From the NCBI GenBank assembly GCA_963741955.1, contig CAVUKB010000010.1:96001-160000 (forward strand): a DNA stretch of 64,000 nucleotides, given 5' to 3'. Both the position numbers and the translations under genes were made by a program. Of this stretch, positions 19,669 through 39,341 are shown piece by piece. The DNA comes from an uncultured Acidobacteriota bacterium (GTDB lineage Bacteria; Acidobacteriota; Thermoanaerobaculia; Gp7-AA8). How positions within the stretch are numbered: position 1 is the first letter of the stretch; each line of letters starts with the position of its first letter. A model generated the notes under the pieces. That model had not been told where the DNA came from, did not search any database, and saw nothing but the letters and a program-made list of their open reading frames with translations.

Positions 19669-20223
19669 GTGGCCTCGAAGCTTCCGTCTTTCCCCGGTTC
19701 CAGGGATCTGGCGCACCTCGACAAGGTGGCGGCCGATGCGTGTTTCCAGTGCAACCGCTGCACGGCCGGATGCCCTCTTTTCGCCGCGATGGATCTCTCC
19801 CCCGCGCAGATGGTCCATCATCTCCTTCTCGGCGAGTGGGAGCCGGTGGTCGAGTCGGATGCGATCTGGGCCTGCGTCCATTGTGAAACGTGCACGGCGC
19901 GTTGCCCGCAGCAGGTCGACGTCTCCGGGCTCCTCCACGCGGCCCGCGTCGCGGCATGGCAGGCCGGAAGGCTTCCCCGCGACAAGACCATCGCCACGTA
20001 CTTCGCCTCTTTCGTGGAGAACCTCTACCTGTACGGTCGCTCGGCCGAGCTCCCGCTGACCCTGATCTGGAAGCTCAAGTCCGAGGACTATCTGCGGGAC
20101 ATGCTGCTCGGGATCCGGCTCCTTTCCCGAGGAAAGCTCGCTCTGTTCGGTCTGCCGAAGGGAGGCGCGACCTACCGCCGTCTCTACGATCGGGTGAAGC
20201 AGAAGGAGGCAGCCGGATCATGA
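19669..20223 (+). CDS. hdrC: Heterodisulfide reductase subunit C-like 2x[4Fe-4S] protein
   Basis: CFQCNRCTAGCP and CVHCETCTARCP. Confidence 0.88.
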   Translation: MASKLPSFPGSRDLAHLDKVAADACFQCNRCTAGCPLFAAMDLSPAQMVHHLLLGEWEPVVESDAIWACVHCETCTARCPQQVDVSGLLHAARVAAWQAGRLPRDKTIATYFASFVENLYLYGRSAELPLTLIWKLKSEDYLRDMLLGIRLLSRGKLALFGLPKGGATYRRLYDRVKQKEAAGS

Positions 20224-21098
20224 AACGCTACGCCTACTATCCCGGCTGCTCACTCGAGAAGATGACCAGCGAGTACGACGTTTCGTTCCGGAACGTCTGC
20301 GACGTTCTCGGCATCGAGCTGGAAGAGCCGCGCGACTGGTTCTGCTGCGGCGCGGGCATGGTCGGCAACGTCTCGCCGCTCCTCGGGCTCGCGGTCCCGT
20401 TGAAGAATCTCGTCCTGGCCCGCGAGACGGGACTGGGGGAGTTCGTTTCCCCCTGCTCGGCCTGTTACAACCAGTTCAAGCGCGCTCAGCACGAGATTTC
20501 TGAAGACCTGACCCTTCGCGCCGATCTCGAGGAGATCGTGGAGGCGCCCCTCGAGCATCAGCCCGAAGTTCTCCATCCCCTGGAGATGCTGCTGCGCGAG
20601 GTGAACGGCTCGAAGCCCCGAATCGAGCGATCCGCACCGGAGCTTCGTGTCGCCTGCTACTACGGATGTCTCCTCACCCGGCCGCCGAAGATCGTGACGT
20701 TCGACGATTGCGAGGATCCGCGGTCGATGGACCGGCTGCTGCAGCGGTTCGGCATCCAGACCATCGACTGGTCACAGAAGACGCGCTGCTGCGGCGCGTT
20801 CTACGCCATGGTGAATCCCGATCGCGTCCTCGAGCTCACCCGCGAGATTCTGCAGGGGGCTCTGGAGGCGGGGGCGAACGCCATCGCCGTCGCCTGCCCG
20901 GTCTGTCATCTGAATCTCGATTCGCGACAGCCGGAGGTGAACGACCGGTTCGGCACGACTTACGGCATCCCGGTTTTCTACTTTTCTCAGCTTCTCGGCT
21001 TCGCCCTCGGTGTCCCGACCGAAGGACTCGGCCTCTGGAGACATGTCGTCGATCCACAACCCCTCCTGAGCCCGAAAGCGGCCGTCGTCGCTGGTTGA
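20220..21098 (+). CDS. hdrB: Heterodisulfide reductase subunit B (CCG domains)
   Basis: ATGA overlap with hdrC. YYPGC, CCGAG, PCSAC, YYGC, CCGAF, ACPVCHLNLD. Confidence 0.92.
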   Translation: MKRYAYYPGCSLEKMTSEYDVSFRNVCDVLGIELEEPRDWFCCGAGMVGNVSPLLGLAVPLKNLVLARETGLGEFVSPCSACYNQFKRAQHEISEDLTLRADLEEIVEAPLEHQPEVLHPLEMLLREVNGSKPRIERSAPELRVACYYGCLLTRPPKIVTFDDCEDPRSMDRLLQRFGIQTIDWSQKTRCCGAFYAMVNPDRVLELTREILQGALEAGANAIAVACPVCHLNLDSRQPEVNDRFGTTYGIPVFYFSQLLGFALGVPTEGLGLWRHVVDPQPLLSPKAAVVAG

Positions 21099-21105
21099 GG
21101 CGCGT

Positions 21106-24100
21106 ATGAGTCAGACGAAGACAATCGGATCCGTTCTCGTGGTTGGAGGAGGCGTCGCAGGGATGCAGGCGGCTCTCGATCTGGCCGACTCGGGGTACAA
21201 GGTCTATCTGGCCGATCGCGAGAGCAGTATCGGCGGAACGATGGCGCAGCTCGACAAGACGTTCCCGTCGAACGACTGCGCGATGTGCATCCTCGCTCCG
21301 CGCCTGGTCTCGGCGGGACGTCACCTCAACATCGAGATTCTCCCGAGCACCGAGGTGCTGGGGGTGGAGGGAGAGGCGGGGAGATTCCGAGCGACGCTGC
21401 ACCGGCGCGGGATCTACATCGACGCATCGAAGTGCACCGGATGCGGCGAGTGCAGCCAGGTCTGCCCGGTCGATCTTCCGAACGAATTCAACTTCGGTCT
21501 CGGAACCCGCAAAGCGATCTCGCGCCGGTATCCGCAGGCGGTTCCGGCGAATTACACCATCACCAAACGTGAGCGGCCACCCTGCCAGACCGCGTGCGCC
21601 GCGGGAACGAACGTCCAGGGATACATCGCTCTCACTGCTCAGGGAAAATTCAAGGAAGCGCTCGACGTCGTACGCGAGCGGATGCCGTTCGCGTCGGTCT
21701 GCGGGCGCATCTGCCTTCACCGCTGCGAGAACGAATGCAACCGGAATCTGGTCGACGAGCCCGTCGCCATCATGCAGGTCAAGCGGTTTCTCGCCGACTG
21801 GGATTACGAGCAGGGGAATCCTCTTCCGCCTCCGGTTCCGAAGACCAGGACGGCGCGGATCGCGGTGATCGGCGGCGGACCTGCGGGGCTGGCGTGTGCG
21901 CACGACCTCGCGAAGGACGGATATCCGGTGACCCTGTTCGAATCGAGCGACGAGCTCGGCGGAATGCTCCGCTCGTGCATTCCGGAGTTCCGGCTTCCCG
22001 AAGCTCACCTCGAGCGCGACATCGAATTCCTTCTCTCGCCCGGCGTGGACGTGGTGCTGCGGAAATCCCTCGGGAGAGACTTCACCATCGAAGATCTCGA
22101 GAAGGAAGGATACCGAGCGGTCTTTCTCGCCACCGGGGCGTACAAGCCGAAGAAGCTTCCGATTCCCGGACACGATCTCGAGGGGATCAGCCTGAACATC
22201 GAGTTCCTCGAAGCGGTCCGCGCCGGTGAGCACGTCGATCCTGGCCGGCGGGTCCTGGTGATCGGCGGCGGTAACGTGGCGATCGACGTCGCACGTTCAG
22301 TACGACGACTCGGCGTCTCCAGCGTGACCATGGCCTGTCTCGAGAGCCGCGAGGCCATGCCCGCGCATTCGTGGGAAGTTCAGCAGGCGCTCGACGAAGG
22401 GATCGAGATTCTCAACGACGTCACCCTCAAGCGTTTCGTGGGCGAGAGAGGACACGTTCGTGGCGTCGAAGCGCGGCGTATCCGCGATCTGTCGTTCGAC
22501 GCGGAGGGGCGGATTCACCTCACCGAGGTTTCGGAGAGCGATTTCGCGATCGACGCGGACCGGATCATCGTGGCGATCGGGCAGACTCCTGAGCTGAGCT
22601 ATCTCGACTCGAGGAGCGGGGCGGTGCAGGTGAGCCGTCGCGGGCTGATCGAAGTCGATCCGGACACGCTCGCCACCAGACGTCCGGGAGTCTTCGCGGG
22701 TGGTGACGTGGTCGCCGAGCAGCCGGGGATCCGGATCTTCGCGGGTGGCGACGTGGTGACCGGAACGGCGTTCGTGGTCGACGCGGTCGCAGCCGGGCAT
22801 CGCGCCGCCGAGTCGATCGACCGCTACGTGGAAGGTCTTCCGTTCGCGGGGCCGAGACCGAAACCGAAGCCGTACAAGCTCACCCCCGAGGCCGTGGAAA
22901 AGAAGCTCCATGACGGCGAGATCCGGAAGAGCGTCCGGGCGATCGCGCCCGAAGCCGCTCCGGCAGCACGGGTCGCGAGCTTCGACGAGATTCAGGAAGG
23001 GTTCACCGAGGCGATGGCGGTCGCGGAAGCGAAACGCTGCCTTTCGTGCGGCCTCTGTTCGGAATGCCTCCAGTGCGTCGAGGTCTGTCAGGCGCATGCG
23101 ATCCGGCACGACTTTCCCCGCGACGAATACCGGACCATCGACGTCGGCGCGGTCATCCTCGCTCCGGGTCTCTCGGCGTTCGACCCGACCGAGAAGGGAG
23201 AGTACGGCTACAACCGCTATCCCAACGTCGTCACCAGCGTCGAATTCGAGCGCATCCTCAGCCCTTCCGGTCCTTTCGGCGGAAAGGTGCAACGTCCCTC
23301 GGATGGAAAGGCACCGAAGAAGATCGCATTCATCCAGTGCGTCGGATCACGCGAAGTCGGCCGCGACTACTGCTCGTCGGTCTGCTGCATGTACACCGCG
23401 AAACAGGCGGTGATCGCGAAGGAACATCAGCCGGGACTGGAGACCACGGTCTTTTACATCGATCTCCGTGCGGTGGCGAAGGGGTTCGAAGCGTACATCG
23501 ACCGGGCGAAGAGCGAAGGAGTGAGGTACGTCCGGTGCCGTCCGTCTGCGGTGACACACCTCCCGCAGAGTGGAGATCTGGTCGTCGAGTATGCAGACGA
23601 AGAAGGGCAGCATCGCGAGATGTTCGACATGGTCGTTCTCGCAGTCGCGCTCACTTCGTCGCCCGATCGGAGACAGCTCGCGCAGGCCGCGGGTATCCCG
23701 GTCAATGAGTATGGATTCGCGAGATCGATCGCCTTCGACCCGGAATCGACCAGCCGTTCCGGCGTCTTCGTCTGCGGGCCGTTCGTCGATCCGATGGACA
23801 TCCCGGAAACGGTGGCTGGCGCGAGCGCGGCGGCGGCGAAGGCGATGGCGCTCCTCGCCGACAGCCGGGGAACGCTGGTCCGGCCGAAGACCTATCCGCC
23901 GGAGAAGGATGTGACAGGGGAAGAGCCGCGCGCCGGTGTCTTCGTGTGCCACTGCGGGACGAACATCGCCGGCGTCGTCGACGTCGAAAAAGTGGTCGAC
24001 TATGCGAAGACTCTCCCGGGAGTGGTCCATGCGGAGCGTAACCTCTACACCTGTTCGGACGACACGCAGAAGCGGATCCGGGAAAAGATCGACGAGCTGA

Positions 24101-25608
24101 ATCTGAATCGGATCGTGGTCGCCTCCTGCACGCCGCGAACGCACGAAGCACTTTTCCGCGACACCATCCGCGAAGCGGGTCTGAACGAGTACTACTTCGA
24201 ATTGGCGAACATTCGCGACCAATGCTCCTGGGTCCACAAGAACCGGAAGGAGCAGGCGACGGAAAAGGCGAAGGATCTGGTGCGGATGGCTCTGGCCAAG
24301 GTGCGTCTCGACGAGCCGCTCCACAAGCGGCCTCTCGCCGTCACCCAGGCCGCGCTGGTCCTCGGCGGCGGAGTGAGCGGCCTCTCCGCCGCGCTCTCGC
24401 TCGCTGATCAGGGCTTTCAGGTTTTTCTGGTCGAGAAGGAACGGGACCTCGGCGGATATGCGAAAGAGCGTCGTTACCCGCTGACCGGCGAGGACACCCG
24501 GATGCGCCTGTGGGAGATGATGGCCCGGGCGCGCACGCATCCGAACATCCAGCTCATGCTGGGATCGACTCTCCAGAAGGTGGATGGCTCGCTCGGCAAC
24601 TTCAAGTCGACCATCGCTACGGATGGCTTCGAGCGCGAGATCGCACATGGCGTGGTGATCGTCGCGACCGGCGCAGAACGGTACGTGCCGAATCAGTACC
24701 TGTTCGGCGAAGATCCACGAGTGGTCCGCCTCTTCGAATTCGAAGAGATGATGGCCGACCACAAGGTCGACACCGATTCGGTGGTGTTCATCCAGTGTGT
24801 CGGTTCGCGGAACGAAGAGCATCCATGGTGCAGCCGCACCTGCTGCATGGAGTCGGTGAAGAACGCTCTGCGCGTGAAGCAGCAGAACCCCGGTGCCGAA
24901 GTCTCAGTGCTCTATCGCGACATCCGCACGTACGGGTACCGCGAGCTCTACTACCGGCAGGCGCGCGAGCGCGGAGTGCGATTCATTCGATTCGACGAAG
25001 CGCATCCGCCGCGGGTGGTCGCGGAGAACGGATCGCTTCGAGTGACGGTGCTGGATCAGATGACACGCCGTGAAGTGGACCTCGATGCGAAGGCGGTCGT
25101 TCTCGCGGCGGCGACGCTTCCGAATCGCGGTAACAAGGACATCGGTCAGATTCTGAAGGTCCCGCTGAGTGAGGACGGATTCTTTCTCGAGGCGCACCGG
25201 AAACTCCGCCCGGTCGATTTCGCGACGGACGGCATCTTTCTCTGCGGCGCCGCGCATTCGCCGGTGGGTTTGCGTGAGGCGGTCTCGCAGGCCGCCGCAA
25301 CCGCGTCGCGAGCGGCGACGATCCTCTCGAAGAGCGTGATCGACCTCGAGCCGACGATCTCTCAGGTGGTGAAAGAACGATGCGACGGTTGTGCGTACTG
25401 CGTCGATCCCTGCCCCTTCCACGCCATCACGCTGGTCGAGTACAGCGAGAACGGCGATACGAAGAAGCGCGTGGAAGTGGACGAAGCGGTCTGCAAGGGG
25501 TGTGGAACATGCGAGGCGACCTGTCCGAAGGGAGCGATCTTCGTGTGGCATTTCCGCCCCGAGCAATTGATGGCACAGGTCCACGCCGCACTCGATATCG
25601 CGGGGTGA
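21106..25608 (+). CDS. hdrA: Large HdrA-family flavoprotein (HdrL type: HdrA with GltD/NfnB-like NAD(P)H module plus second HdrA module)
   Basis: GGTMAQLDKTFPSNDCAMC; PCQTAC...CGRIC, IGGGPAG and GGGNVAID in the insert; two FIQCVGSR motifs; GVFVCHCGTNI; terminal ferredoxin motifs. Confidence 0.92.
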   Translation: MSQTKTIGSVLVVGGGVAGMQAALDLADSGYKVYLADRESSIGGTMAQLDKTFPSNDCAMCILAPRLVSAGRHLNIEILPSTEVLGVEGEAGRFRATLHRRGIYIDASKCTGCGECSQVCPVDLPNEFNFGLGTRKAISRRYPQAVPANYTITKRERPPCQTACAAGTNVQGYIALTAQGKFKEALDVVRERMPFASVCGRICLHRCENECNRNLVDEPVAIMQVKRFLADWDYEQGNPLPPPVPKTRTARIAVIGGGPAGLACAHDLAKDGYPVTLFESSDELGGMLRSCIPEFRLPEAHLERDIEFLLSPGVDVVLRKSLGRDFTIEDLEKEGYRAVFLATGAYKPKKLPIPGHDLEGISLNIEFLEAVRAGEHVDPGRRVLVIGGGNVAIDVARSVRRLGVSSVTMACLESREAMPAHSWEVQQALDEGIEILNDVTLKRFVGERGHVRGVEARRIRDLSFDAEGRIHLTEVSESDFAIDADRIIVAIGQTPELSYLDSRSGAVQVSRRGLIEVDPDTLATRRPGVFAGGDVVAEQPGIRIFAGGDVVTGTAFVVDAVAAGHRAAESIDRYVEGLPFAGPRPKPKPYKLTPEAVEKKLHDGEIRKSVRAIAPEAAPAARVASFDEIQEGFTEAMAVAEAKRCLSCGLCSECLQCVEVCQAHAIRHDFPRDEYRTIDVGAVILAPGLSAFDPTEKGEYGYNRYPNVVTSVEFERILSPSGPFGGKVQRPSDGKAPKKIAFIQCVGSREVGRDYCSSVCCMYTAKQAVIAKEHQPGLETTVFYIDLRAVAKGFEAYIDRAKSEGVRYVRCRPSAVTHLPQSGDLVVEYADEEGQHREMFDMVVLAVALTSSPDRRQLAQAAGIPVNEYGFARSIAFDPESTSRSGVFVCGPFVDPMDIPETVAGASAAAAKAMALLADSRGTLVRPKTYPPEKDVTGEEPRAGVFVCHCGTNIAGVVDVEKVVDYAKTLPGVVHAERNLYTCSDDTQKRIREKIDELNLNRIVVASCTPRTHEALFRDTIREAGLNEYYFELANIRDQCSWVHKNRKEQATEKAKDLVRMALAKVRLDEPLHKRPLAVTQAALVLGGGVSGLSAALSLADQGFQVFLVEKERDLGGYAKERRYPLTGEDTRMRLWEMMARARTHPNIQLMLGSTLQKVDGSLGNFKSTIATDGFEREIAHGVVIVATGAERYVPNQYLFGEDPRVVRLFEFEEMMADHKVDTDSVVFIQCVGSRNEEHPWCSRTCCMESVKNALRVKQQNPGAEVSVLYRDIRTYGYRELYYRQARERGVRFIRFDEAHPPRVVAENGSLRVTVLDQMTRREVDLDAKAVVLAAATLPNRGNKDIGQILKVPLSEDGFFLEAHRKLRPVDFATDGIFLCGAAHSPVGLREAVSQAAATASRAATILSKSVIDLEPTISQVVKERCDGCAYCVDPCPFHAITLVEYSENGDTKKRVEVDEAVCKGCGTCEATCPKGAIFVWHFRPEQLMAQVHAALDIAG

Positions 25609-25611
25609 GCG

Positions 25612-26076
25612 ATGAGTGAAATGGTGAACGAGATGACAGGCAGCGAACCGGCGAGTGCGTCGACAGTGGAGGCATTCGAGCCGTTGATCATCACCTTCTG
25701 CTGTTACTGGTGCGCCTACGCAGGTGCTGATCTTGCCGGCACGTCGCGGTTCCAGTATCCGCCCAACATCCGGATCATCCGCGTGCAGTGCAGCGGGATG
25801 GTGCACCCGAATCTGGTGATCGAAGCGCTGACCAAAGGCGCGGATGGAGTGCTGATGCTCGGATGTCATCCGGGCGACTGCCATTACCTCGAAGGTAACT
25901 TCCGAGCCCGTTCGCGGGCGGAGGCGATCGACCTGATGCTCGAAGACTTCGGTCTGGAGCCGGAGCGATTCCGCCTCGAATGGGTCTCGGCTTCGGAAGG
26001 GTCGCGATTCGCACAAGTGGTGACCGATATGGTCGAGCAGATCAGGCAGCTCGGCCCCAGTCCGTATCGCACATAG
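25612..26076 (+). CDS. mvhD: [2Fe-2S] hydrogenase delta subunit
   Basis: FCCYWCAYAGAD, RVQCSG, GCHPGDCHY, WVSASEG. Confidence 0.95.
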   Translation: MSEMVNEMTGSEPASASTVEAFEPLIITFCCYWCAYAGADLAGTSRFQYPPNIRIIRVQCSGMVHPNLVIEALTKGADGVLMLGCHPGDCHYLEGNFRARSRAEAIDLMLEDFGLEPERFRLEWVSASEGSRFAQVVTDMVEQIRQLGPSPYRT

Positions 26077-26127: not shown

Positions 26128-27057
26128 ATGACGGCTAAGCTGGCCGAGGAATGGTTCGCCATCTGCGGCGGGTGCGAGGTGACGGTGCTCGACATCGGGG
26201 AGCCACTCATCGACGTGCTCAAGCAGGTGGAGATCGTCCACATGCCGGTCCTGATGGACCACAAGCTTTATGGTCAGACCGGGGAAAAGGAACGGATGGA
26301 GATTCCGGAAGCGGACATCGGGATCCTGACCGGAGGAATTCGCAACGAGGAGCACAAGAAGATCGCGCAGGAGATGCGTGCGAAGTCGAAGATCCTGATC
26401 GCACTCGGCTCCTGCGCGGCATTCGGCGGCATTCCGGCGCTCGCCAATGCGTCGACCACCGAAGAGTTGCTGGAGAAGGTCTATCGCGGGAGCGTCACCA
26501 CGGACACCAACGGGATTCCGCACGAAGAGATCCCGCCGCTGACGGACAGAGTCTACGCGGTGAGTGAAGTGGTCCCGGTCGATGCGGTCCTTCCGGGATG
26601 TCCGACGACCCCGGAGATGGTCGCATCGGCACTGATCGCGTTGCTGGAAGGGAAGCCGCTTCCGGCGCTCGCGTCGAAGAGCGTCTGCGACGAATGTCCG
26701 ACCAAGCGCGAGAAGAAGGCCGTCTCGACCCTGAAGCGCCGCTTCGAAGCGCCGGAGTTCGAGGCGGGGGCGCCGCTCTCGGACATGCGCTGCATGATGG
26801 AGCAGGGCTTCCTCTGTCTCGGCCCCGCCACCCGTGGAGGTTGCGGTGGAAGCGATGGAGTTCCTCGCTGCATCCGCGCGTACGTTCCTTGTGAAGGCTG
26901 CTTCGGACCACTCTCGGAGAAGGCCAATCCGATGGTCGACATGATGGGCGCGCTCTCCACCATCGGACTCGATCCGAAGCAGATTCCGGATCGCGCCGCG
27001 ACATTCAACCGATTTGCCGGAGCGGGACGACTCCGTCCGGCCCCGCGGAGGTCATGA
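26128..27057 (+). CDS. mvhG: Group 3c [NiFe]-hydrogenase small subunit
   Basis: CGGCEV, GSCAAFGGIP, PGCP, VCDEC, CLGPATRGGC, CEGCFGP. No Tat signal. Confidence 0.92.
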   Translation: MTAKLAEEWFAICGGCEVTVLDIGEPLIDVLKQVEIVHMPVLMDHKLYGQTGEKERMEIPEADIGILTGGIRNEEHKKIAQEMRAKSKILIALGSCAAFGGIPALANASTTEELLEKVYRGSVTTDTNGIPHEEIPPLTDRVYAVSEVVPVDAVLPGCPTTPEMVASALIALLEGKPLPALASKSVCDECPTKREKKAVSTLKRRFEAPEFEAGAPLSDMRCMMEQGFLCLGPATRGGCGGSDGVPRCIRAYVPCEGCFGPLSEKANPMVDMMGALSTIGLDPKQIPDRAATFNRFAGAGRLRPAPRRS

Positions 27058-28499
27058 TGGCCAGCACGATCGTCATTCAGCCAGTCACCCGTATCGAAGG
27101 ACACGCGAAGGTCACCATCCGGCTCGACGACGCGGGCGAAGTCGACACCGCCCGAGTCAACGTGATCGAGTTGCGTGGCTTCGAGAAGTTCTGTCTCGGC
27201 AAGCCGGTCGAGGACATGCCGAGAATCACGCCGCGCATCTGCGGCGTCTGTCCCTGGTCACATCATCTCGCTGCGGCGAAAGCGACCGACGCGGTGTTCG
27301 GCGTGGAGCCGCCTCCCGCCGGGAAGAAATTGCGTGAGCTCTGCAACAGCGTGGCGTTCATGGAGGAGCACATCCTCCACTTCTACTTCCTCGCCGGCGC
27401 CGATTTTCTCCTCGGTCCGGATGCGGACTACTCGGTGCGCAACGTGATCGGAATTCTGAATGCCGCACCGGAGATCGCGCAGCGGGTGGTGAAGGTGCGC
27501 CACATGTGCGCGAAGATGCTGGAGATCCTCGCCGGGAAACCGATCCATCCGCAGGCGGCCGTCCCGGGCGGATTCAGCAAGCCACTGGCGAAGGGAGAAC
27601 GGGACGAGCTCCGGAAGATGGCCGACGAGGCTCTCGAGCTCGCGAAATTCTCCATCGCATTCGCGAAAGAAAACATCTTCCCCAAGTACATCGAAACGGT
27701 GAAGACGCTCGGTGTCATCAACACCGGATTCATCGGCACGGTTCGCAAGGACGGCGCTCTCGACCTGTACGACGGGCAGCTACGTCTGATGAACAACGAA
27801 GGCGCTTACGAAGACTTCGAAGCGGAGCGGTACGGTGATTTCATCGCCGAGCACATCGAGCCGTGGAGCTACCTGAAGTTCCCCTATGCGAAGAAGTGGG
27901 GCGCTTTCTCCATGGACGCCGAGAATCCTGGCGGCATCTACCGGGCGAACACGCTCGCCCGAATCAACGTCTGTGACTTCATCGACACGCCACTCGCGCA
28001 GGCCGAGCTCGAAGAGTTCCGGGCGAAGTTCGGCCGGCCGGCTCAGTTCACTCTCCTCTATCACTGGGCCCGGCTGATCGAGCTTCTCTACAACGCGGAG
28101 AATGCGATCCGTCTGCTCGACGACCCGGAGATCACCAGTACCAATACGCGGGTGAAGGTCACCCCGCGTGCGGCGAGAGGAGTCGGTTCGGTCGAGGCGC
28201 CACGCGGAACGCTGATCCACGAGTACGAGACCGACGCGGACGGGATGATCACGAACATGAATCTCATCGTCGGTACGACGCACAACAACGCTCCGATCAA
28301 CATGTCCGTGACCCAGGCCGCGAAGAGCCTGATTCACGAAGGAAAGTACGACCAGGGGATTCTGAACACGGTGGAGATGTCGATCCGTGCTTACGACCCC
28401 TGCCTCTCCTGTGCGACGCACCGGCTCGACGGGAAGCTCTCCGTCAAGGTCGAGATCGTCGACTCGAAGGGGAAGAGCATCGAGACACTCGCGAACTGA
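27054..28499 (+). CDS. mvhA: Group 3c [NiFe]-hydrogenase large subunit
   Basis: TRIEGH, L1 RICGVC, EAPRG, L2 [12 protein letters not shown] followed by a cleavable C-terminal tail. Confidence 0.95.
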
Positions 28500-28505
28500 A
28501 GGCAT

Positions 28506-28530
28506 GACCCCGGGCGCGAAGCCCGGGGTC
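28506..28530 (+). other. Stem-loop after mvhA (mRNA stabiliser or partial terminator)
   Basis: gaccccgggc-gcgaa-gcccggggtc, perfect 10-bp stem without U-tract. Confidence 0.55.
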
Positions 28531-28614: not shown

Positions 28615-29136
28615 ATGGAGCTCGATCGAGAGATGGTCCCCGACTTCTGTTCGAAGCCGGTGGTGGTACTGGGATGCGGAAATCTCCTCTGGGGAGACGA
28701 CGGATTCGGGTGTGAGCTGATCGCCTGGGTCGAGCAGCACTGCGAGATTCCGGAGCACGTCTGCATCCTCGATGCGGGGACCGGCGTACGGAAGCTTCTC
28801 TTCACCATGTGTGTCAGTCCGATCCGTCCGAAGCGCCTGGTGATCGTCGACGCGATCGACGTGAACCGGACTCCGGGAGAGGTGTTCGAGATCGACCCGG
28901 CCTCGATTCCCGCAGCGAAGCTCGACGATTTTTCTCTCCATCAGATCCCGACGTCGAATCTCCTTCGCGAGCTTCAGGAGGAATGCGGAGTGGAAGTGCG
29001 GATCCTCGCCTGTCAGACCGGAGCTCTCCCCGACGAGATCTCCCCCGGTCTCTCGGCTTCCGTGGCTGCCGCCCTCGGTCCGGCCGCCGAGCTGCTCGTC
29101 GACGAATATTTCCTTCCTCTCGCCCCGGCATCGTGA
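28615..29136 (+). CDS. Hydrogenase maturation protease
   Basis: LGCGNLLWGDDGFG, DAGT, IVDAID, SLHQ. ATG at 28615 follows GGGGAG. Confidence 0.92.
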   Translation: MELDREMVPDFCSKPVVVLGCGNLLWGDDGFGCELIAWVEQHCEIPEHVCILDAGTGVRKLLFTMCVSPIRPKRLVIVDAIDVNRTPGEVFEIDPASIPAAKLDDFSLHQIPTSNLLRELQEECGVEVRILACQTGALPDEISPGLSASVAAALGPAAELLVDEYFLPLAPAS

Positions 29137-32100: not shown

Positions 32101-32762
32101 ATCGCTGCCACTACGAACCGGGAGTCGGTGGATTCGTCAGAGCGAAGATCCGCGGCACCTCGGAGCTCGTCACTACCCTCACCGGCACGCAGCGCCCGAA
32201 ACCGGTTGCGGAAGTCACGAATGACCGCTGCCTCGCGTGTCACCCGATGGCGAAGCTCGGGAAGACCATTCGGGTCGCGGACAGCTGGAACTTCAATCAT
32301 GTGCGGCACCTGGCCGCGCCGTTGACTCGAGGCCCCGCGAAGCTGCGATGCACCAGCTGCCACACCGACGTGGGAAGTGCGACTCATTTCGCGGTCGACA
32401 CGAACGCGTGTTTCACCTGTCACTTCGAGACCTCCGCATCCGCGCGACTCGCGGCCAGCGTCGGTTGCATCGGATGCCATGACCTTCCTGGATCGAAGAG
32501 CCGCTTCGATCACGTCGCCGCAGGCATCGAGAGAAACGACGACACGTGCGCGTCTTGTCACGATTCCGCATCGAGGGGAACCATGCTGGTCGAGATCCGC
32601 CAGTGCCGGCACTGCCATGAGGAAAGCGGACGCGATCTTCTGAACGCGGCCGACGTACACGCCATTCACGATCTTCACGTCACCGGAAAGGGAGTGGGAT
32701 GCGACTGGTGCCACGGGGTCATTCAGCACGAGAAAGTTGACACGAAACTCGCCATGAAGTAG
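29145..32762 (+). CDS. Very large polytopic membrane protein fused to a nine-heme NapC/NrfH-like c-type cytochrome
   Basis: About 940 aa of consecutive hydrophobic helices, then CGSCH, CDRCH, CLACH, CTSCH, CFTCH, CIGCH, CASCH, CRHCH, CDWCH. Confidence 0.88.
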   Translation: MQESRVIHAAHLLASVFVLLLLVGARGFLATQPFVSAILLLLFVPVYYTAARVRSFGRFLYPAAFLLVLAWALVLHGAGVPLALQPVGAILPIIGFYWAGETGVPRRVENSAAVLGRVNDIIIAVFSLWIVVRFSWFLKEAPWGAGAALAVYSVFLWLRFTDNRRIAWSAASVLLASGAFYFVVLWQPRIALLVTSLALVGLVVGLAISERLEAVETIGFSAPVAFFGLTGMLADVPMVVPSAWLGFGLAWLLLSIWLYEPERTPLMSENEGSAGAVSPHLIAGILSIIVPIFVFDVWRNDVLFGAWLASLFLGTLVAGRVFGENAVSLIEVLFARVLGVLSRVAAPVFFVFVLLHGVTGSFRLAIIAFFFAAISLSAGWQTEPRVFTRRNARVWEGGALLALGWFLAVHRLSSSSWIELLLASGAPLVFLLLLESRLSERRERGVYGESLADSAVVASILASVLAVVASPDDLIRAGVIGGILLLATAAAFYFRREPSTLYSVPVVLGYWMYMVARAAGGTGELLGVPYLVVGLLSAWVGYGLLARDRRWHRVLQFMWFLCTAVALFLFAPFSAIGAWLAPLWAVSFVLVARGRAARRDAAFANGLEIAGGILAAASLAVLIWRRIDLAAATALCIYALTWGLTGILKRVYAYLYPATLAAVAALFFVARPTTGEEYYLTWVFPLGAAFLAVAMRYRRRDRKPLAIPWEISTLIATVAGAALFLLLPFGEALALGVLTGAAWLVIFGMVTLRAEEYLAAAGLAAAFVLYELLPLFQGVSSSNRLAVFAPVAIVLAVAGRLLQQRGREIKGWAAWGAATTVAVLASVFAVWPGGTAVVAARIVLVIAALLWALLLAWSQKEGFVYLATLTLAILTWSFVASSSDLFGRHLFAFFVVGVALLGAIFLASALRTRFRFREPTLYAPSWRWSHRFLYLVPVAILGVAVFGSWGVTTSSNPYFCGSCHDMGTYFANWKDSPHARAEVSCDRCHYEPGVGGFVRAKIRGTSELVTTLTGTQRPKPVAEVTNDRCLACHPMAKLGKTIRVADSWNFNHVRHLAAPLTRGPAKLRCTSCHTDVGSATHFAVDTNACFTCHFETSASARLAASVGCIGCHDLPGSKSRFDHVAAGIERNDDTCASCHDSASRGTMLVEIRQCRHCHEESGRDLLNAADVHAIHDLHVTGKGVGCDWCHGVIQHEKVDTKLAMK

Positions 32763-32799: not shown

Positions 32800-33420
32800 A
32801 TGGTGAAGACCTCCGCGAAAGGGTGGATTGGAGAGTTTCTCGGGAGCGCGCACATTTTTGCGTCGGCTGTCGAGGACGTGCTCGAGAGAAAGATTCTCGA
32901 TGAAGTGGCGGGCAAGCAGATCACCCACTCTCAGTTCCGTCTTCTCAAGATGGTCGAGCTCGCGGACACCCAGACCATCCGCGACGTGGCGATCTTTCTC
33001 GGGATCAGCAATGCGGCTGCGAGCAAGGCGGTGGACAAACTGGTGAAGAAGCACTTTCTGCTGCGGGAAGAAGCAGAGGTCGACCGGCGCGAGATCCGTC
33101 TCTCTCTCACCGACTCGAGCCGGAAGATCCTCGCCGATTACGACCGGGCACGAGACGAGAAGCTCGCGCGGATCTTCTCGGATTTTTCTTCCGACCAGTT
33201 GAAGGACGCTTCCATCCTTCTCGATCGTCTCTCCGCGGGTCTGGTGGACCACCACGACAATCCCGACGATCTCTGTCTCCAGTGCGGCATCTATTTCCGG
33301 CAGAGATGCGTCGTCCGTGAGCTCGCGAAGAGGGACTGTTTCTTCCACCAGAACCGCGCCGCGCGCCGCGGCAGGGTGGCCGATGTGGAGCCTTTGCCGA
33401 GTACGGTTGAATCGGAGTAG
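32800..33420 (+). CDS. MarR-family regulator with C-terminal four-Cys cluster
   Basis: wHTH (ITHSQF...AASKAVDKLV...DRRE.RLSLT) plus CLQCGIYFRQRC...DC. Confidence 0.85.
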   Translation: MVKTSAKGWIGEFLGSAHIFASAVEDVLERKILDEVAGKQITHSQFRLLKMVELADTQTIRDVAIFLGISNAAASKAVDKLVKKHFLLREEAEVDRREIRLSLTDSSRKILADYDRARDEKLARIFSDFSSDQLKDASILLDRLSAGLVDHHDNPDDLCLQCGIYFRQRCVVRELAKRDCFFHQNRAARRGRVADVEPLPSTVESE

Positions 33421-33483: not shown

Positions 33484-33750
33484 ATGTGCCTCGCGGTACC
33501 GGGAAAGATTCTGACCAGGGAGATGAAGAACGGGTCGCTCACCGCGCGGGTGCGGTTCGGTGGGATCACCCGCGAGGCATACCTCGATTTCGTGCCGGAA
33601 GCCGGCGTGGGGGACTACGTGATGGTCCACGTCGGGTTCGCGATCAGCCGGGTCGACGAAGAAGAAGCGCAACGCACGTACCGGATTCTCGAGAGCATGG
33701 GTCTTCTGGAGGGTGAGCTCGGTCCCGGCGAAGAGACTGTCGAATCATGA
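33484..33750 (+). CDS. hypC: Hydrogenase chaperone HypC
   Basis: MCLAVPG N-terminus, GDYVMVHVGFAI. Confidence 0.96.
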   Translation: MCLAVPGKILTREMKNGSLTARVRFGGITREAYLDFVPEAGVGDYVMVHVGFAISRVDEEEAQRTYRILESMGLLEGELGPGEETVES

Positions 33751-33820
33751 CCCCTGCATCACGAATGCAGGCTCGTAACGAAGCAAAGATCGCCGGCAGG
33801 CGAAGACGATCGAGGCGGCC

Positions 33821-34918
33821 GTGAAATACATCGACGAATACCGCGACGAGAAGATCGCGCGATCGCTGGTCGAGCGCATCCGGCGCCGGGTGACTCGCCC
33901 GGAGGTACTGATGGAGATCTGCGGCGGGCAGACTCACACGCTGATGCGCTACGGCATCGACGAGATGCTGCCGCCCGAGATCGAGCTGGTCCACGGACCG
34001 GGGTGCCCGGTCTGTGTCACACCGCTGGAGACGCTCGACAAGGCGATCGAGATCGCCTCCCTTCCGGACGCCACGCTCGTCTCCTACGGGGACATGTTGC
34101 GTGTTCCCGGCTCCCGCTCGGATCTGTTCCGGATCAAAGCGGAAGGAGGCGACGTTCGAATCGTTTACTCGCCGGCGGAAGCGGTGAAGATCGCGCGTTC
34201 CAATCCGGAGCGGCGGGTGGTCTTCTTCGGCGTCGGCTTCGAGACCACTGCTCCCGCGAACGCGATGGCCGTCTACCTCGCGAAACGCGAAGGGCTGAGA
34301 AACTTCTCGATGCTGGTCTCGCACGTCCTCGTCCCGCCCGCGATCCGTCTCCTCCTCGAGTCGAAGTCGAACCGGGTGCAGGGCTTCATCGCTCCCGGTC
34401 ACGTCTGTACCGTGGTCGGCTATGCGGATTACGAAACGCTTGCGAGAGATTACCGGGTGCCGATGGTGATCGGAGGTTTCGAGCCGGTCGATCTTCTCGA
34501 GGCGATTGCCATGCTCGTCGATCAGCTCGAAGACGGACGTTACGAGGTCGAGAACCAGTACGTCCGCTCCGTCGGATACCGCGGCAATATCCCCGCCCAG
34601 CAGCTGATGGAAGAAGTCTTCGAAGTCTGCGACCGGAAGTGGCGGGGAATCGGATCGATCCCGATGAGTGGGTTCGCCATCCGGCCGGAGTACGCCGCCT
34701 ACGATGCGGAGAAGATCTTTCCGCTCGAGAGCATCACCGCCGAGGAGCCGCCGGAGTGCATCAGCGCACTGGTGCTGCAGGGGCTTCGCAAACCGATCCA
34801 CTGTCCCGTGTTCGCCACGCGATGCACGCCGGAGATGCCCATGGGAGCTCCGATGGTCTCTGCGGAGGGTGCCTGCGCCGCGTACTACCACTACCGCCGT
34901 CACGCCGCCGCCGGATGA
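33821..34918 (+). CDS. hypD: Hydrogenase maturation protein HypD
   Basis: [35 protein letters not shown]. Confidence 0.96.
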
Positions 34919-34926
34919 GGTGAGTC

Positions 34927-35985
34927 ATGTCCGATGCCGTATCGATTGAGAATTTTGCCTGTCCGGTTCCGATCGCCAGACGCGATCGCGTCCTTCTCGG
35001 CCACGGCAGCGGAGGCAAGCTGAGCGCCGAGCTCCTGTCGGAGCTTTTCCTCCCGACCTTTTCGAACGACGTGCTCGGGAGAATGGATGACCAGGCGATC
35101 GTCGATGTCGAAGGCGTTCGAATCGCGTTCACCACCGACAGCTTCGTGGTCAAGCCGCTCTTCTTTCCCGGAGGGGACATCGGCTCGCTCGCCGTGCACG
35201 GCACGATCAACGATCTTGCGATGGGAGGCGCGAAGCCTCTTTTCCTCAGCGTCGCCTACATCATCGAGGAAGGACTGGAGATGGAGGTCCTGCGCCGGCT
35301 GACGGAGTCGGTGCAGCGCGCGGCGGAGGCTGCGGGCGTGACCGTGGTGACGGGCGATACGAAGGTGGTGGAGAAGGGGAGTGGCGACGGGCTCTTCATC
35401 AACACGTCGGGGATCGGAGTGGTTCCGAAGGATCGCGATCTCTCTGCTTCGCACGCCCGTCCGGGGGACCGAGTGATCCTCAGCGGCTCGATCGGCGATC
35501 ACGGAATCGCGATCATGACCCGTCGCGAAGGTCTCGAGTTCGAGAGCGACATCGAGAGCGATTCGGCGGCGCTGCACGGTTTGACTGCCCGGATGCTGAA
35601 AGCATCGAGCAACATCCGCTGCATGCGCGATCCGACGCGCGGGGGCCTGTCGAGCACGTGCAACGAGATCGCCGCCTCCTCCGCAGTCGGGATCACCCTC
35701 GACGAGCGCACCATTCCGGTTCGGGAGGAAGTCCAGGGCGCGTGCGAGCTTCTCGGGCTCGACCCGCTGTACGTCGCGAACGAGGGGAAACTCGTGGCGA
35801 TCGTCGATCCTGCGGACGCGGATCGGGTGATCGAGGCGATGCGGTGCGACCCGCTGGGTCGCGAGGCGCGGATCATCGGGACGGTGACCGGCGACTCGCC
35901 CGGCCTGGTGATCATGCGCACCCGTTTCGGGACCAGCAGGATCGTGGACATGCTCGCCGGCGACCAGCTGCCGAGGATCTGCTGA
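34927..35985 (+). CDS. hypE: Carbamoyl dehydratase HypE
   Basis: HGSGG, TTDSFVV, RDPTRGG, ANEG, C-terminal PRIC. Confidence 0.96.
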   Translation: MSDAVSIENFACPVPIARRDRVLLGHGSGGKLSAELLSELFLPTFSNDVLGRMDDQAIVDVEGVRIAFTTDSFVVKPLFFPGGDIGSLAVHGTINDLAMGGAKPLFLSVAYIIEEGLEMEVLRRLTESVQRAAEAAGVTVVTGDTKVVEKGSGDGLFINTSGIGVVPKDRDLSASHARPGDRVILSGSIGDHGIAIMTRREGLEFESDIESDSAALHGLTARMLKASSNIRCMRDPTRGGLSSTCNEIAASSAVGITLDERTIPVREEVQGACELLGLDPLYVANEGKLVAIVDPADADRVIEAMRCDPLGREARIIGTVTGDSPGLVIMRTRFGTSRIVDMLAGDQLPRIC

Positions 35986-35993
35986 GGAGAACG

Positions 35994-36341
35994 ATGCACG
36001 AGCTGGGAATTGCTGCCGCTCTGCTCGACGCGATCCGCGTCGAAGTCGCGAAGCACCCGGGCGGACGCGCGTCCAGAGTCGGCATCCGGATCGGCGAGAT
36101 CAGCGGAGTCGATCCCGACGCTCTCGGTTTCAGTTTCGAATGCCTTCTCTCCGACTCCGGTCTCGCTCCTCTGCAGCTGGAAATCGAGACCTGTCCCCGA
36201 ATTCAGAAATGCAGCTCGTGCGGGCATCGCTTCGACGTGGTCGATCTCGATACCCGCTGTCCATCATGCGCTGAGCGATTGACCGAATGTGTCGGCGGGA
36301 CGGAGCTCGATCTCGCCTGGCTGGAGGTAGAACGACCATGA
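35994..36341 (+). CDS. hypA: Nickel metallochaperone HypA
   Basis: MHE N-terminus, CSSC...CPSC. RBS GAGGAG. Confidence 0.93.
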   Translation: MHELGIAAALLDAIRVEVAKHPGGRASRVGIRIGEISGVDPDALGFSFECLLSDSGLAPLQLEIETCPRIQKCSSCGHRFDVVDLDTRCPSCAERLTECVGGTELDLAWLEVERP

Positions 36342-37015
36342 CCCGAATCGCGATGGAAGGAAAGATTCTCAACGAGAACCAGCGCATCGCCGCGGAGCTT
36401 CGCGAGCGATATGAAGCGAACGGTCTGCTGACCCTCAATCTCATCAGCTCTCCCGGCGCCGGAAAGACGTCGCTGCTCGAGAAGACTCTGCAGCGATTCG
36501 ACCGCGCTCGACGCGTCGCCCTCCTGACCGGAGACATCCAGACGGATCTCGACGCCGGCCGGCTGGCCCGTTTCGGATTTCCGGTCCGGCAGATCACGAC
36601 CAGCGGCGCGTGCCATCTCGACGCGAAAATGGTCGAGCGGGCACTGGATGGATGGGATCTCGGCACACTCGAGCTTCTTCTGATCGAGAACGTCGGCAAT
36701 CTCGTCTGTCCCTCCAGCTTCGACCTCGGCGAAGAGTCGAAAATCGTGGTGTTCAGCGTCGCCGAGGGGGAGGAAAAGCCGCTCAAGTATCCGGGGACCT
36801 TCGCGCGGGCGGAACTGGTGATCATCAACAAGATCGACCTTCTGGGTCATGTGCCGTTCGACATCGAAAAGGCACGCGAGAATACCGAGCGAAGCAATCC
36901 CGGAGTCCGGGTGATCGAGCTCTCGTGCACCACCGGGGACGGGATCGCGGAATGGGAATCGTGGATCGAGGAGAAGCTCGGCGCGAAACGCGATCTCACT
37001 GCGGTGGTCCACTGA
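36338..37015 (+). CDS. hypB: Nickel incorporation GTPase HypB
   Basis: SSPGAGKT, CHLDA, ENVGNLVCP, KPLKYP, NKID. Confidence 0.95.
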   Translation: MTRIAMEGKILNENQRIAAELRERYEANGLLTLNLISSPGAGKTSLLEKTLQRFDRARRVALLTGDIQTDLDAGRLARFGFPVRQITTSGACHLDAKMVERALDGWDLGTLELLLIENVGNLVCPSSFDLGEESKIVVFSVAEGEEKPLKYPGTFARAELVIINKIDLLGHVPFDIEKARENTERSNPGVRVIELSCTTGDGIAEWESWIEEKLGAKRDLTAVVH

Positions 37016-37040
37016 AGGAACGAGATCGGTCGAGGATCCG

Positions 37041-39341
37041 ATGCCGGATCATTCCCATCTGATTGTCGAGCCCTCGATGAGAAAGTCGATCGAGGTCGGC
37101 GGGATCGTGCAGGGAGTCGGATTCCGTCCTTTCATCCACCGCCTGGCATCGTCGTGCGGCGTGAACGGCTCGGTCGGGAACACTGCACGTGGTGTGACCA
37201 TCGAGATCGAGGGGACGGGATCGGCGCTGCAGAGTTTTCTCGAGCGGCTCCCTGCGGAGCTGCCGCCGCTCGCGCGAATCACCAGATTCGCGGTGCGTGA
37301 TCTTCCGGCGACCGGAGAGACCGGATTCCAGATCGTCGCCAGCAGTCACGAAGCTTCGGCTTCGGTGCTCGTCTCGCCGGACATCGCGGTCTGTCCCGAT
37401 TGTCTCCGGGAAATGTTCGACCCGGCCGACCGCCGCTACCGCTACCCGCTCATCAACTGCACCAACTGCGGCCCGCGGTTCACCATCATCCGCCGGCTTC
37501 CGTACGACCGTCCGAACACCTCCATGGACCGGTTTCCGATGTGCGACGAATGCAGGCGCGAGTACGAGGATCCGACGGACCGACGGTTCCACGCGCAACC
37601 GAACGCGTGCTGGGAGTGTGGCCCGCGTCTAGACTGGTGGGATTCCGCAGGATCGCGAATCGAGTGCGATGACCCGATCGCTGCTGCTGCCGCAGCGCTC
37701 GCGCGAGGAGAGATCGTCGCGATCAAAGGGCTGGGAGGATTTCACCTTGCGGTCGACGCGACGAATCGCGAGGCAGTTCAGCGGTTGCGTGAACGGAAGG
37801 GACGGGTGGACAAACCGTTCGCGGTCATGGTACCGGCAATCGATGCCGCGAGAGCGCTCTGCGAGATCGGGTCAGGTGCCACCGAGCTCCTCTCGCCCCA
37901 GCGTCCGATCGTCCTGATGCCGTGGAAGCGGTCCACGGAGGTGGCTGAAGCGGTCGCTCCGCGAAGCGTCACCCTCGGATTGTTCCTTCCCTACACTCCG
38001 ATGCAGTTTCTTCTGTTTGCGGCGGGTGCTCCGCAGGCCCTGGTGATGACCAGCGCAAACGTGAGCGAAGAGCCGATCGCGATAGACAACCGGGACGCGG
38101 TCGCGCGGCTCGGGGGTATCGCGGATTCGTTTCTGGTGCACGATCGCGACATTCTGAGGCGGTGCGACGATACGGTGATGCGGCTGGCCGGAGGAAGTCC
38201 GCGGCAGGTGCGGCGCTCACGCGGATTCGTACCGGCGCCGATCGCCCTCCACTGCGAAGTCCCATCCGTGCTCGCCGTCGGTGCGGAGCTCAAGAACAGC
38301 GTCTGCATCACGCGGGGGAACGAAGCGATGCTCAGCCAGCACGTCGGAGACATCGAGAACCTCGAGGCGTTCCGGTTCTTCGAAGAAGTGATCGCCCACA
38401 TGAAGCAGGTGTTCGAGATCGACCCGGAGATCGTGGCGTGCGATCTTCATCCCGACTACTTTCCTTCCAGGTGGGCGCGATCGCTGGAGGGAAAGACCAT
38501 CGTCGAAGTGCAGCACCATCACGCTCACGTCGCGAGCTGCATGGCCGAGAACGGCCTCACCGGAAAGGTGATCGGAATCGCGCTCGATGGCACCGGCTAC
38601 GGAACGGACGGAACCATCTGGGGCGGCGAGATCCTGGTCGCAGACTACGCGTCCTTCGATCGTGTCGCGAGTTTCGAGGAGACGCCGATGCCCGGAGGCG
38701 AGGCGGCGATCCGTCAGCCATGGCGAATGGCGCTGGCTCACCTGGACCGGAGCTACGGCCGGGATCTGTTCAATCTGGAGATACCTTTCGTCCGGCAGCT
38801 CGACCGGGGCAAAGCCACGACTCTCCTCGGGATGATCTCGCAGCGATTCAACTCTCCCGTGACGACGAGCTGCGGCCGTCTGTTCGACGCGGTTGCAGCA
38901 CTCATCGGTGTCCGCGAGAGCGTCAACTACGAAGCACAGGCGGCCATCGAGCTGGAGGCGGTCGCGAGCGAGGAGTTTCACGGAAGCTATGCCGCGGACG
39001 TCCACGAGGGACGGGAGAGGCTGGTGATCGGCACAGCGCCGCTGATCGAGGCCATCGTCGGGGATCTGCGTCGGAACGTGCCCGCACCAGTCATCTCGAG
39101 CCGCTTTCACCGCGGCATCATCGAGGCTCTCGCACGCTGCTGCCGGATCATCGGTTCCAGAACGGGCCTCCGGCGGGTCTGCCTGAGCGGTGGAAGCTTT
39201 CAGAACCGGATTCTGCTCGAAGGGGTGATCGAGGAGCTGACCGGGGATCGGTTCGAGGTATTCACGCACGCCTCGGTTCCCACCGGCGATGGCGGCATCG
39301 CGCTGGGTCAGGCGATGGTGGCCGCCGCGCGGATGAAATGA
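37041..39341 (+). CDS. hypF: Carbamoyltransferase HypF
   Basis: GIVQGVGFRP, CTNCGPR zinc fingers, KGLGGFHL, QHHHAH, GDGGIALGQ. Confidence 0.96.
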   Translation: MPDHSHLIVEPSMRKSIEVGGIVQGVGFRPFIHRLASSCGVNGSVGNTARGVTIEIEGTGSALQSFLERLPAELPPLARITRFAVRDLPATGETGFQIVASSHEASASVLVSPDIAVCPDCLREMFDPADRRYRYPLINCTNCGPRFTIIRRLPYDRPNTSMDRFPMCDECRREYEDPTDRRFHAQPNACWECGPRLDWWDSAGSRIECDDPIAAAAAALARGEIVAIKGLGGFHLAVDATNREAVQRLRERKGRVDKPFAVMVPAIDAARALCEIGSGATELLSPQRPIVLMPWKRSTEVAEAVAPRSVTLGLFLPYTPMQFLLFAAGAPQALVMTSANVSEEPIAIDNRDAVARLGGIADSFLVHDRDILRRCDDTVMRLAGGSPRQVRRSRGFVPAPIALHCEVPSVLAVGAELKNSVCITRGNEAMLSQHVGDIENLEAFRFFEEVIAHMKQVFEIDPEIVACDLHPDYFPSRWARSLEGKTIVEVQHHHAHVASCMAENGLTGKVIGIALDGTGYGTDGTIWGGEILVADYASFDRVASFEETPMPGGEAAIRQPWRMALAHLDRSYGRDLFNLEIPFVRQLDRGKATTLLGMISQRFNSPVTTSCGRLFDAVAALIGVRESVNYEAQAAIELEAVASEEFHGSYAADVHEGRERLVIGTAPLIEAIVGDLRRNVPAPVISSRFHRGIIEALARCCRIIGSRTGLRRVCLSGGSFQNRILLEGVIEELTGDRFEVFTHASVPTGDGGIALGQAMVAAARMK

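Follow-up and report, generated by a model that had tools for sequence, protein, structure and literature searches.

A run of 15 genes on one strand (19669-39341) in an uncultured Acidobacteriota bacterium encodes a complete hydrogenase-heterodisulfide reductase system, HdrCB-HdrL-MvhDGA, together with a large membrane multihaem cytochrome, and in sister loci of other genomes the hdrC and hdrB genes of this system have been exchanged for a single qmoC-like gene. The run lies in a 64,000-nucleotide stretch (the window; positions 96,001 to 160,000 of contig CAVUKB010000010.1, here contig C10) of a 5.44-Mb genome with a completeness of 99.1%. We propose a quinone-coupled electron-bifurcating Mvh-Hdr complex, in which H2 would reduce NAD+ (or ferredoxin) and menaquinone together and the cytochrome would carry quinol electrons outward; belief and doubt are about evenly balanced in our view of this proposal. 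For evidence drawn from sequence comparison, that for the quinone wiring of the complex appears unusually direct, and a link to the quinone pool, which an earlier note on this DNA had raised as a possibility, has become the best-supported part of that note's reading.

The exchange came to light when MvhA was searched in 251 and 401 genomes around two carriers, which gave 10 and 8 close matches. Ten distinct genomes, previously not known as carriers, hold an MvhA that is 82-84% identical; in nine of the ten, hdrC and hdrB are replaced by one gene of 385 aa, and the contig of the tenth begins inside hdrL. The 385-aa product matches QmoC over its full length and has four invariant membrane His. 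All ten sister genomes carry an HdrL from a different clade, ~50% identical, with YRR at its nucleotide site. A genome-wide search found no intact cytochrome membrane domain in the ten, only one short fragment, and the control genome scored; the cytochrome gene lies four genes away from the swapped cassette. In three of the ten, an HdrB at 38-46% identity is encoded elsewhere in the genome. The window genome itself contains no QmoC-like gene and its locus does not classify as QmoABC, aprAB not being among the genes searched.

Scars at the sister loci give the order of events. Four of the seven loci with upstream DNA retain an hdrCB-type promoter and a decayed 5' portion of hdrC before qmoC, at 77-86% DNA identity. 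The start of the cytochrome gene is kept in 4 of 9: in one, ~70-90 codons are joined to the end of hypE, two keep ~10 codons and one keeps ~5, and because these deletion ends differ the cytochrome was lost more than once after the swap. The direction of the swap, from hdrCB to qmoC, is established for the Bryobacteraceae-like group only; L249 and L250 show no such scars. The HdrL tree splits cleanly by type, whereas the MvhA and MvhG trees do not: QmoC-type rows fall in both marked MvhA/MvhG clades, implying four changes, partly on unresolved forks, and a single QmoC-type MvhA clade was rejected by the approximately unbiased (AU) test (p 7e-58, the tree having been seen before the test). Two other loci, with MvhA at 78% and 62%, have different layouts and no cytochrome. 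Since the swap makes the cytochrome dispensable and hdrCB loci always keep it, HdrCB plus the cytochrome would do the job of QmoC, and the simplest reading of the sequences is that the two are alternative solutions.

A compact qmoC-hdrL(YRR)-mvhDGA arrangement without apr genes at the locus was seen in L236, L237, L238, L239, L240, L241, L243, L249 and L250. We take YRR at the nucleotide site to mark use of NADP(H), and this operon is a candidate H2:NADP+/menaquinone bifurcating complex. In L233 (4383-11142, genome G348) the hydrogenase has yet another input module, the third: MvhGA are 73-78% identical and a 1083-aa HdrA has a NuoG-like N-terminus; the genes upstream are presumably of the kind that accompanies sensory or bifurcating [FeFe] clusters.

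The cytochrome gene (29145-32762) encodes a protein of 1205 aa. The earlier description of it as a membrane nonaheme cytochrome is correct as to its nine CxxCH motifs and falls short as to its membrane part, in which the predicted helices group into about 35 spans, far beyond a cytochrome anchor. Residues 1-930 (29145-31934) form a predicted helical-hairpin solenoid of ~34 helices, and the last helix and the nine-haem domain, predicted to lie outside the membrane, follow at 31935-32762. Lys and Arg are biased between alternate loops (45 vs 14, and 35-47 vs 9-15 across 23 homologues), so the N-terminus is predicted to be inside and the haems outside. AlphaFold models had a pLDDT (predicted local distance difference test) of 74 for residues 1-1200 and 92 for residues 1-400. 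The membrane domain matched no Pfam family and, at E<=0.001, no solved fold in Foldseek; its best structural matches (Z 12-13, root-mean-square deviation 10-21) were to a designed helical repeat. Fold searches with the whole model and with residues 1-400 returned generic helical repeats only, and the Atlas at 0.9 gave no match.

The haem domain is more familiar. It scores above the cut-off of Pfam PF03264, and its profile aligns with NrfH (PDB 2J7A, E 1.5e-11) over the first three haems only, a match that a single-sequence search of solved structures had missed. In this alignment M966, K1001 and E1007 correspond to NrfH Met49, Lys82 and Asp89; M966 and K1001 are invariant across 52 rows and the position of E1007 is Glu or Gln in homologues. 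Asp89 has a role at the NrfH quinol site. What the Met and Lys do is described in bioRxiv 10.1101/2022.01.10.475773. The anchor helix, the CxxCHxM motif, the conserved Lys and the acidic residue that characterise the NapC/NirT/NrfH site are thus all present, and a small one-helix tetrahaem protein is not what is encoded (TIGR03153, 42 bits vs a cut-off of 134). The third haem motif, CxxCH in the window, is CX4CH in most homologues.

A homologue search gave 28 proteins near full length: the cytochrome itself, 24 proteins that are 39-45% identical to it and three that are 28-29% identical. The profile of residues 1-930 reached 112 clusters among 1.84 billion representatives. Family members come as one fused chain (1200-1440 aa) or in two parts with the break near residue 600, and a complete haem domain contains 8 to 17 haem motifs. 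Many N-parts (P0045, P0084, P0087, P0095, P0105 and P0109) open with a conserved soluble stretch of ~80 residues that is absent from the acidobacterial form. The 35-helix/multihaem family is the new, previously undescribed part of the system. It may be a dedicated membrane module that makes HdrBC a menaquinone reductase or a transmembrane electron exit, a suggestion we offer with somewhat more doubt than belief.

The earlier note would have been contradicted had the cytochrome not been linked to hdr-mvh genes in other genomes, and the link was found repeatedly. Loci with close cytochrome homologues numbered 37; three short fragments were left out, and the remaining 34 were clustered at 97% nucleotide identity into 25 groups. 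The protease gene stands directly before the cytochrome in all 18 groups with upstream DNA, and hdrB and hdrL are present in all 11 that extend far enough. The same note had listed marR, the hyp set and a divergent nickel transporter as additions to the hdr-mvh run. These are not a fixed part of the locus: marR follows the cytochrome in 13 of 25 groups, 7 of the 11 hdrB groups have lost part or all of the marR-hyp block and all 11 keep the cytochrome, and the permease gene adjoins hdrC only in the window genome and in G024. The latter, of the same family as the host, was the one genome among 60 relatives with a full-length cytochrome. None was found in 400 other Acidobacteriota sampled, and a search of kin yielded one new carrier among 140 relatives of G075 and none among 130 of G072; the module is rare.

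Distant homologues, ~20-28% identical, also stand beside hdrCB in three other phyla. An Anaerolineae locus (L263) has the order mvhD-mvhG-mvhA-protease-cytochrome, with a cytochrome 27.5% identical, and a distant cytochrome lies directly before hdrC in six Planctomycetota-type loci and in a Cloacimonadota locus (L030). L032, L127, L128 and L264 reach hdrB and continue into hdrA, and three of these four reach NuoF-like and mvhD genes; no hydrogenase large subunit occurs within the stretch examined. We observed in these loci (L032:6950-20612 and the other three) an 11-12-haem cytochrome, hdrC, hdrB, a split hdrA with NuoF-/NuoG-like genes, mvhD and Flx/Asr-like genes. In two Anaerolineae loci (L029:2-9214 and L126:4765-13056) the order is menA-like, menG-like, split cytochrome, Rieske, hdrC, hdrB, cytochrome b6-like, subunit IV and cytochrome c, so that the split cytochrome has menA-/menG-like genes on one side and a Rieske-hdrC-hdrB-cytochrome b cluster on the other. 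In L029 it is preceded by a 634-aa gene that had been taken, wrongly, for a radical SAM enzyme and encodes the N-terminal part of the membrane domain. A HemN-like gene upstream in two Planctomycetota-type loci has 3 and 4 of the 5 motifs of menaquinone methyltransferases, a weak lead because a member of the same clade was found to be a haem chaperone.

All genes of the run were confirmed at the positions given in the earlier note. Intergenic distances range from -4 to 115 bp and the G+C content is similar to that of the remaining window. The order on the plus strand is hdrC (19669-20223; two [4Fe-4S] motifs), hdrB (20220-21098; two CCG domains), hdrL (21106-25608; 1500 aa, an HdrA with a GltD/NfnB-like insert), mvhD (25612-26076; Pfam FlpD), mvhG (26128-27057; best NCBIfam match VhuG), mvhA (27054-28499; the [NiFe] large subunit), a hydrogenase maturation protease gene (28615-29136; start codon uncertain), the cytochrome gene, marR (32800-33420; Pfam and alignment), hypC (33484-33750; Pfam), hypD (33821-34918; Pfam and NCBIfam), hypE (34927-35985; NCBIfam), hypA (35994-36341), hypB (36338-37015; NCBIfam) and hypF (37041-39341; Pfam and NCBIfam). 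MvhA has CxxC motifs at 61 and 445 and a cleavable 25-residue C-terminal tail, the protease being encoded downstream. It scores 450 bits for VhuA (cut-off 800, not reached) vs 142-172 for FrhA and sulfhydrogenases, and its gene stands with mvhD, mvhG and hdr genes as in group 3c [NiFe]-hydrogenases (MvhADG). A G+C-rich hairpin without a U-tract in the mvhA/protease gap (28504-28528) may lower the level of the downstream genes.

HdrL fits its definition, an HdrA fused to a GltD/NfnB-like NAD(P)H module with mvhD next. Comparison with PDB 5ODC shows two fused HdrA halves, with equivalents of Glu356, Lys409 and Cys197. The N-half (10-155 and 651-848) contains the FAD domain, an equivalent of Cys197 and the inserted ferredoxin, itself interrupted by a 500-aa module whose nearest relatives are NfnA/NfnB-type chains; the C-half (939-1494) lacks Cys197 and supplies the mobile-arm domains, namely the N-terminal domain and the C-terminal ferredoxin. 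In methanogens the mobile arm of one HdrA (N- and C-terminal domains plus MvhD) serves the FAD of the other HdrA, and the inserted ferredoxin is the low-potential exit, as PMC12350162 reports. Because the halves are complementary and given this methanogen arrangement, the fusion would retain exactly one full bifurcation path, with the pyridine-nucleotide module on its low-potential exit. The nucleotide site reads CLES in the window protein and in 11 of the same type, and YRR in the five solved relatives shown; HdrL with CLES is predicted to prefer NAD(H). The NAD(P)H module in HdrA to which the earlier note drew attention is therefore present and is not new, being of the HdrL or HdrA-NfnB type: HdrL was named in Desulfobacterium (PMC2702500), and fused HdrA pairs and NfnB inserts have been described in anaerobic methanotrophic (ANME) archaea (PMC9012536). 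The HdrL architecture and bacterial Mvh-Hdr systems as such are already known.

We infer all of the electron-transfer steps of the proposed complex; gene content, domain anatomy, synteny and the swap with its direction were read directly from the genomes. MvhAG would oxidise H2 in the cytoplasm, and MvhD and the C-half of HdrL would deliver the electrons to the FAD of the N-half, as methanogen structures suggest. Low-potential electrons may leave by the inserted ferredoxin and the fused NfnB-like module to a pyridine nucleotide, probably NAD+, and perhaps also to ferredoxin. To judge from the QmoC swap, high-potential electrons would pass from HdrC to HdrB and on to menaquinone, not to a disulfide of the coenzyme M/coenzyme B (CoM/CoB) or DsrC type. 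The cytochrome would be the membrane partner of this branch: its NrfH-type site may re-oxidise quinol at the outer face, the nine haems may pass electrons to periplasmic acceptors in a proton-releasing redox loop, and the 35-helix domain probably serves as scaffold or conduit between HdrCB and the quinone site.

Menaquinone is the most likely end of the high-potential branch because a QmoC-like subunit replaces hdrCB in the sister loci. Quinols reduce the haems b of QmoC, a subunit in electron exchange with quinones (PMC3333476), and for Qmo it is already known that QmoC and HdrBC can substitute for one another (PMC8477390). HdrB may itself reduce quinone at the inner face, as has been proposed for its homologue SdhE, thought to be the anchor of type E succinate dehydrogenase and the holder of its quinone site (PMC2754724). 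The window genome has two futalosine-pathway menaquinone genes; methylmenaquinone is not invoked because no MenK-type gene above cut-off was found in it. The potential of H2 is -414 mV. Those of menaquinone and NAD are -70 and -320 mV (PMC5861303). By calculation, reduction of NAD+ alone by H2 becomes endergonic from near 1e-4 bar, and reduction coupled to menaquinone is still exergonic, by -16 kJ, at 1e-6 bar H2.

Several points weigh against this reading. At 169-181 bits the QmoC-like proteins stay below the cut-off of 300. All ten QmoC-type genomes are metagenome bins, and eight of them are closely related. The swap exchanged HdrL (CLES to YRR) and MvhD as well, and it could be these that the cytochrome depends on. 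The membrane domain has no invariant His or Cys and the haem domain is predicted on the face opposite HdrB, so no transmembrane wire is evident in the sequence of the cytochrome; a complex prediction for HdrB (1-285) with cytochrome residues 1-705 scored 0.00, which weighs neither way. HdrB retains all ten ligands of its non-cubane clusters, which suits a disulfide reductase, and it scores 158 bits against the methanogen HdrB model and 147 against the SdhE model, both below cut-off. Two deltaproteobacterial-type loci, L033 and L133, have a split cytochrome with Rieske and cytochrome b genes and no hdrB at the locus. We know of no HdrB that has been shown to reduce a quinone, and if HdrB itself did reduce the quinone pool there would be no strict need for a dedicated quinol oxidase. 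For SdhE, the electron paramagnetic resonance signal of the cluster was unaltered by quinones (PMC2754724). In L033 (5588-20600) and L133 there are also genes for three multihaem proteins and for a molybdo-enzyme, with a CrtO-like flavoprotein gene ahead of them.

The main rival is a thiol shuttle, in which HdrB would reduce a disulfide or persulfide, carried on a small molecule or a protein, and the membrane domain would re-oxidise or export the thiol and pass the electrons to quinone or haems. It resembles the handling of heterodisulfide at the membrane by HdrDE, with QmoC short-circuiting the same route; it fits the swap data equally well, agrees with the retained cluster ligands of HdrB and would account for the very large membrane domain and for its loss along with HdrB. 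However, no carrier gene accompanies the locus, the membrane domain has no conserved Cys or other catalytic group, and DsrA, DsrC, TusA and DsrE were searched in the 99.1% complete window genome and none was found. Reduction of CoM-S-S-CoB or a DsrC disulfide is likewise not indicated, DsrC being absent from the matches and HdrB falling below the methanogen cut-off (CoM/CoB synthesis was not searched). DsrC and DsrA were found above cut-off in 2 of 16 cytochrome-family genomes of unstated completeness, 1 of 11 Acidobacteriota and 1 of 5 others. We regard the thiol shuttle as unlikely, though worth serious attention, and the thiol/disulfide substrate that the earlier note put forward is weakened both by the want of a known sulfur carrier in the genome and by the quinone-type subunit that replaces the branch in sister loci.

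It is less likely again that the operon produces H2 from NADH and reduced ferredoxin in fermentation, the cytochrome being a co-regulated but functionally separate anaerobic quinol oxidase that was lost by drift. A fermentative sink would be useful to a host in whose genome mvhA is the sole [NiFe] large subunit found and Rnf was searched for and not found, and QmoC-type loci have decayed elsewhere too, with truncated marR and lost hyp genes. Yet hdrCB-type loci lose marR-hyp as often and keep the cytochrome in 11 of 11, the hdrCB link recurs in other phyla with other input modules, and the menaquinone-coupled reaction in reverse is endergonic at all H2 pressures computed for NAD. Least probable of the three is a transmembrane wire, in which HdrB would dock on the 35-helix domain and this domain, with a bound haem b or a captive quinone, would feed the nine c-haems and an outside acceptor past the free quinone pool: 37 of 42 long homologues, 20%-identical ones included, retain His11 and His32, further His are common at three positions of the membrane domain in distant members, some family members have 12-17 haems and 19 open reading frames of the window genome have at least 3 haem motifs, but position 32 is Gln in the window cytochrome, His889 is kept in the acidobacterial group only and nothing resembles a cytochrome b fold.

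The quinone-coupled complex we favour shares with MvhADG-HdrABC of methanogens (PDB 5ODC; group 3c) the six subunit types, the HdrA Glu356 and Lys409 equivalents, the [NiFe] motifs and the ten HdrB cysteines. It differs in that its HdrA consists of two unlike halves fused in one chain, with an NfnB-like insert, the HdrB loops are unlike archaeal ones, the operon encodes a membrane multihaem protein and the host is bacterial and has oxidases. HdrL of Desulfobacterium autotrophicum and HdrABC/HdrL of Syntrophobacter fumaroxidans have the same HdrA/glutamate-synthase fusion, NADH site and adjacent mvhD; these are sulfate reducers whose HdrL was proposed to serve DsrC, the Syntrophobacter cluster is without MvhA, and the accounts of these clusters in PMC2702500 and PMC5947623 do not mention a membrane cytochrome. 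ANME archaea (PMC9012536) show the complementarity of Cys197 and N-terminal domain in HdrA3/4 fusions and the 500-aa NfnB-like insert in the inserted ferredoxin in HdrA9-11; the window HdrL has both features in one chain with the halves reversed, and CoM/CoB is not its expected substrate. QmoABC of sulfate reducers (PMC3333476, PMC8477390) also joins an HdrA-type flavoprotein to the quinone pool, whereas the window locus has no AprAB context, its partners are a complete hydrogenase and an NAD(P) module, and the HdrBC form brings its own membrane cytochrome. To the anchor helix, CxxCHxM first haem and Lys82 and Asp89 equivalents of NrfH/NapC/CymA (PDB 2J7A) the window cytochrome adds six haems after the aligned three and ~34 helices before them. 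SdhE, an HdrB homologue proposed to contact quinone as anchor of a different complex, is where quinone reduction by a CCG protein has been proposed (PMC2754724). Quinone-coupled bifurcation is established for Etf-type FixABCX (PMC5861303), and in the sources available to us it is only proposed for HdrA-type proteins (Qmo). The literature accessible to us held no account of the cytochrome family, of its hdrCB link or of the qmoC-hdrL-mvhDGA operon; subscription reviews of HdrA diversity could list such clusters.

Upstream of hdrC, a sigma-70-type promoter (TTGAAA-18-AATAAT, 19562-19591, plus strand) was the only one called in 20 kb, where 2.1 were expected in shuffled sequence, and is not significant alone. 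Its spacer holds a palindrome, RTTAAY-N3-RTTAAY (19574-19588), a candidate MarR operator that we treat as a lead. The consensus has 2 matches at <=1 mismatch genome-wide, and the element occurs upstream of hdrC in 7/7 hdrCB loci with marR and 0/4 without it, the motif having been derived from the sequences in which it was counted and 5 of the 7 loci being close kin; one QmoC locus without marR retains it. A related element before marR suggests a second, autoregulated marR unit. The MarR tail has four cysteines (C-x2-C-x7-C-x9-C), kept in 14/14 aligned MarR proteins, from which the protein may be a metal or Fe-S sensor. No FNR box was found in the window upstream of hdrC, and a terminator scan gave 16 candidates vs 10.5 +/- 3.4 by chance, nothing above chance.

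A divergent gene at 18761-19474 (minus strand) encodes a His-rich permease, probably for nickel uptake. The gene is present as the earlier note had it, and its role as a nickel transporter is plausible from Atlas neighbours by features and structure (NicO/UreH/DsbD_2-like permeases) and from synteny; a Pfam search with it returned no match. A small BON-domain gene lies directly after hypF (39389-39697, minus strand). Elsewhere in the window are a tyrosine degradation cluster (4665-9726: HPPD, homogentisate dioxygenase, an unknown 296-aa gene and fumarylacetoacetase), followed by msrA and msrB (10751-11866), and an ABC ATPase, a permease-like gene and a secreted protein whose tail is hydrophobic and contains Cys (15632-17574) that possibly form a peptide export unit. 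HPPD (4665-5753) and homogentisate dioxygenase (6019-7359) are the O2-dependent dioxygenases that had been reported in the window. The genome further contains three cytochrome c assembly matches and three haem-copper oxidase matches, of which the third (an 852-codon frame) may be a nitric oxide reductase. A facultative host, as previously suggested, is supported because aa3-type oxidase genes are present.

Bacterial HdrABC is widespread, and outside sulfate reducers its high-potential substrate is an open question, for which the window locus offers one answer that can be put to a direct test. In the course of evolution a QmoC-like quinone subunit has taken the place of HdrCB and a cytochrome with a quinol site beside one and the same hydrogenase. 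Two expressible test systems result, the HdrCB form and the simpler QmoC form, along with an undescribed 35-helix membrane family. If the proposal is true, an HdrA-type bifurcating complex would have a quinone as its high-potential acceptor, which would answer what many bacterial HdrBC do without CoM, CoB or DsrC, and facultative soil bacteria could make NADH from trace H2 while respiring outside acceptors.

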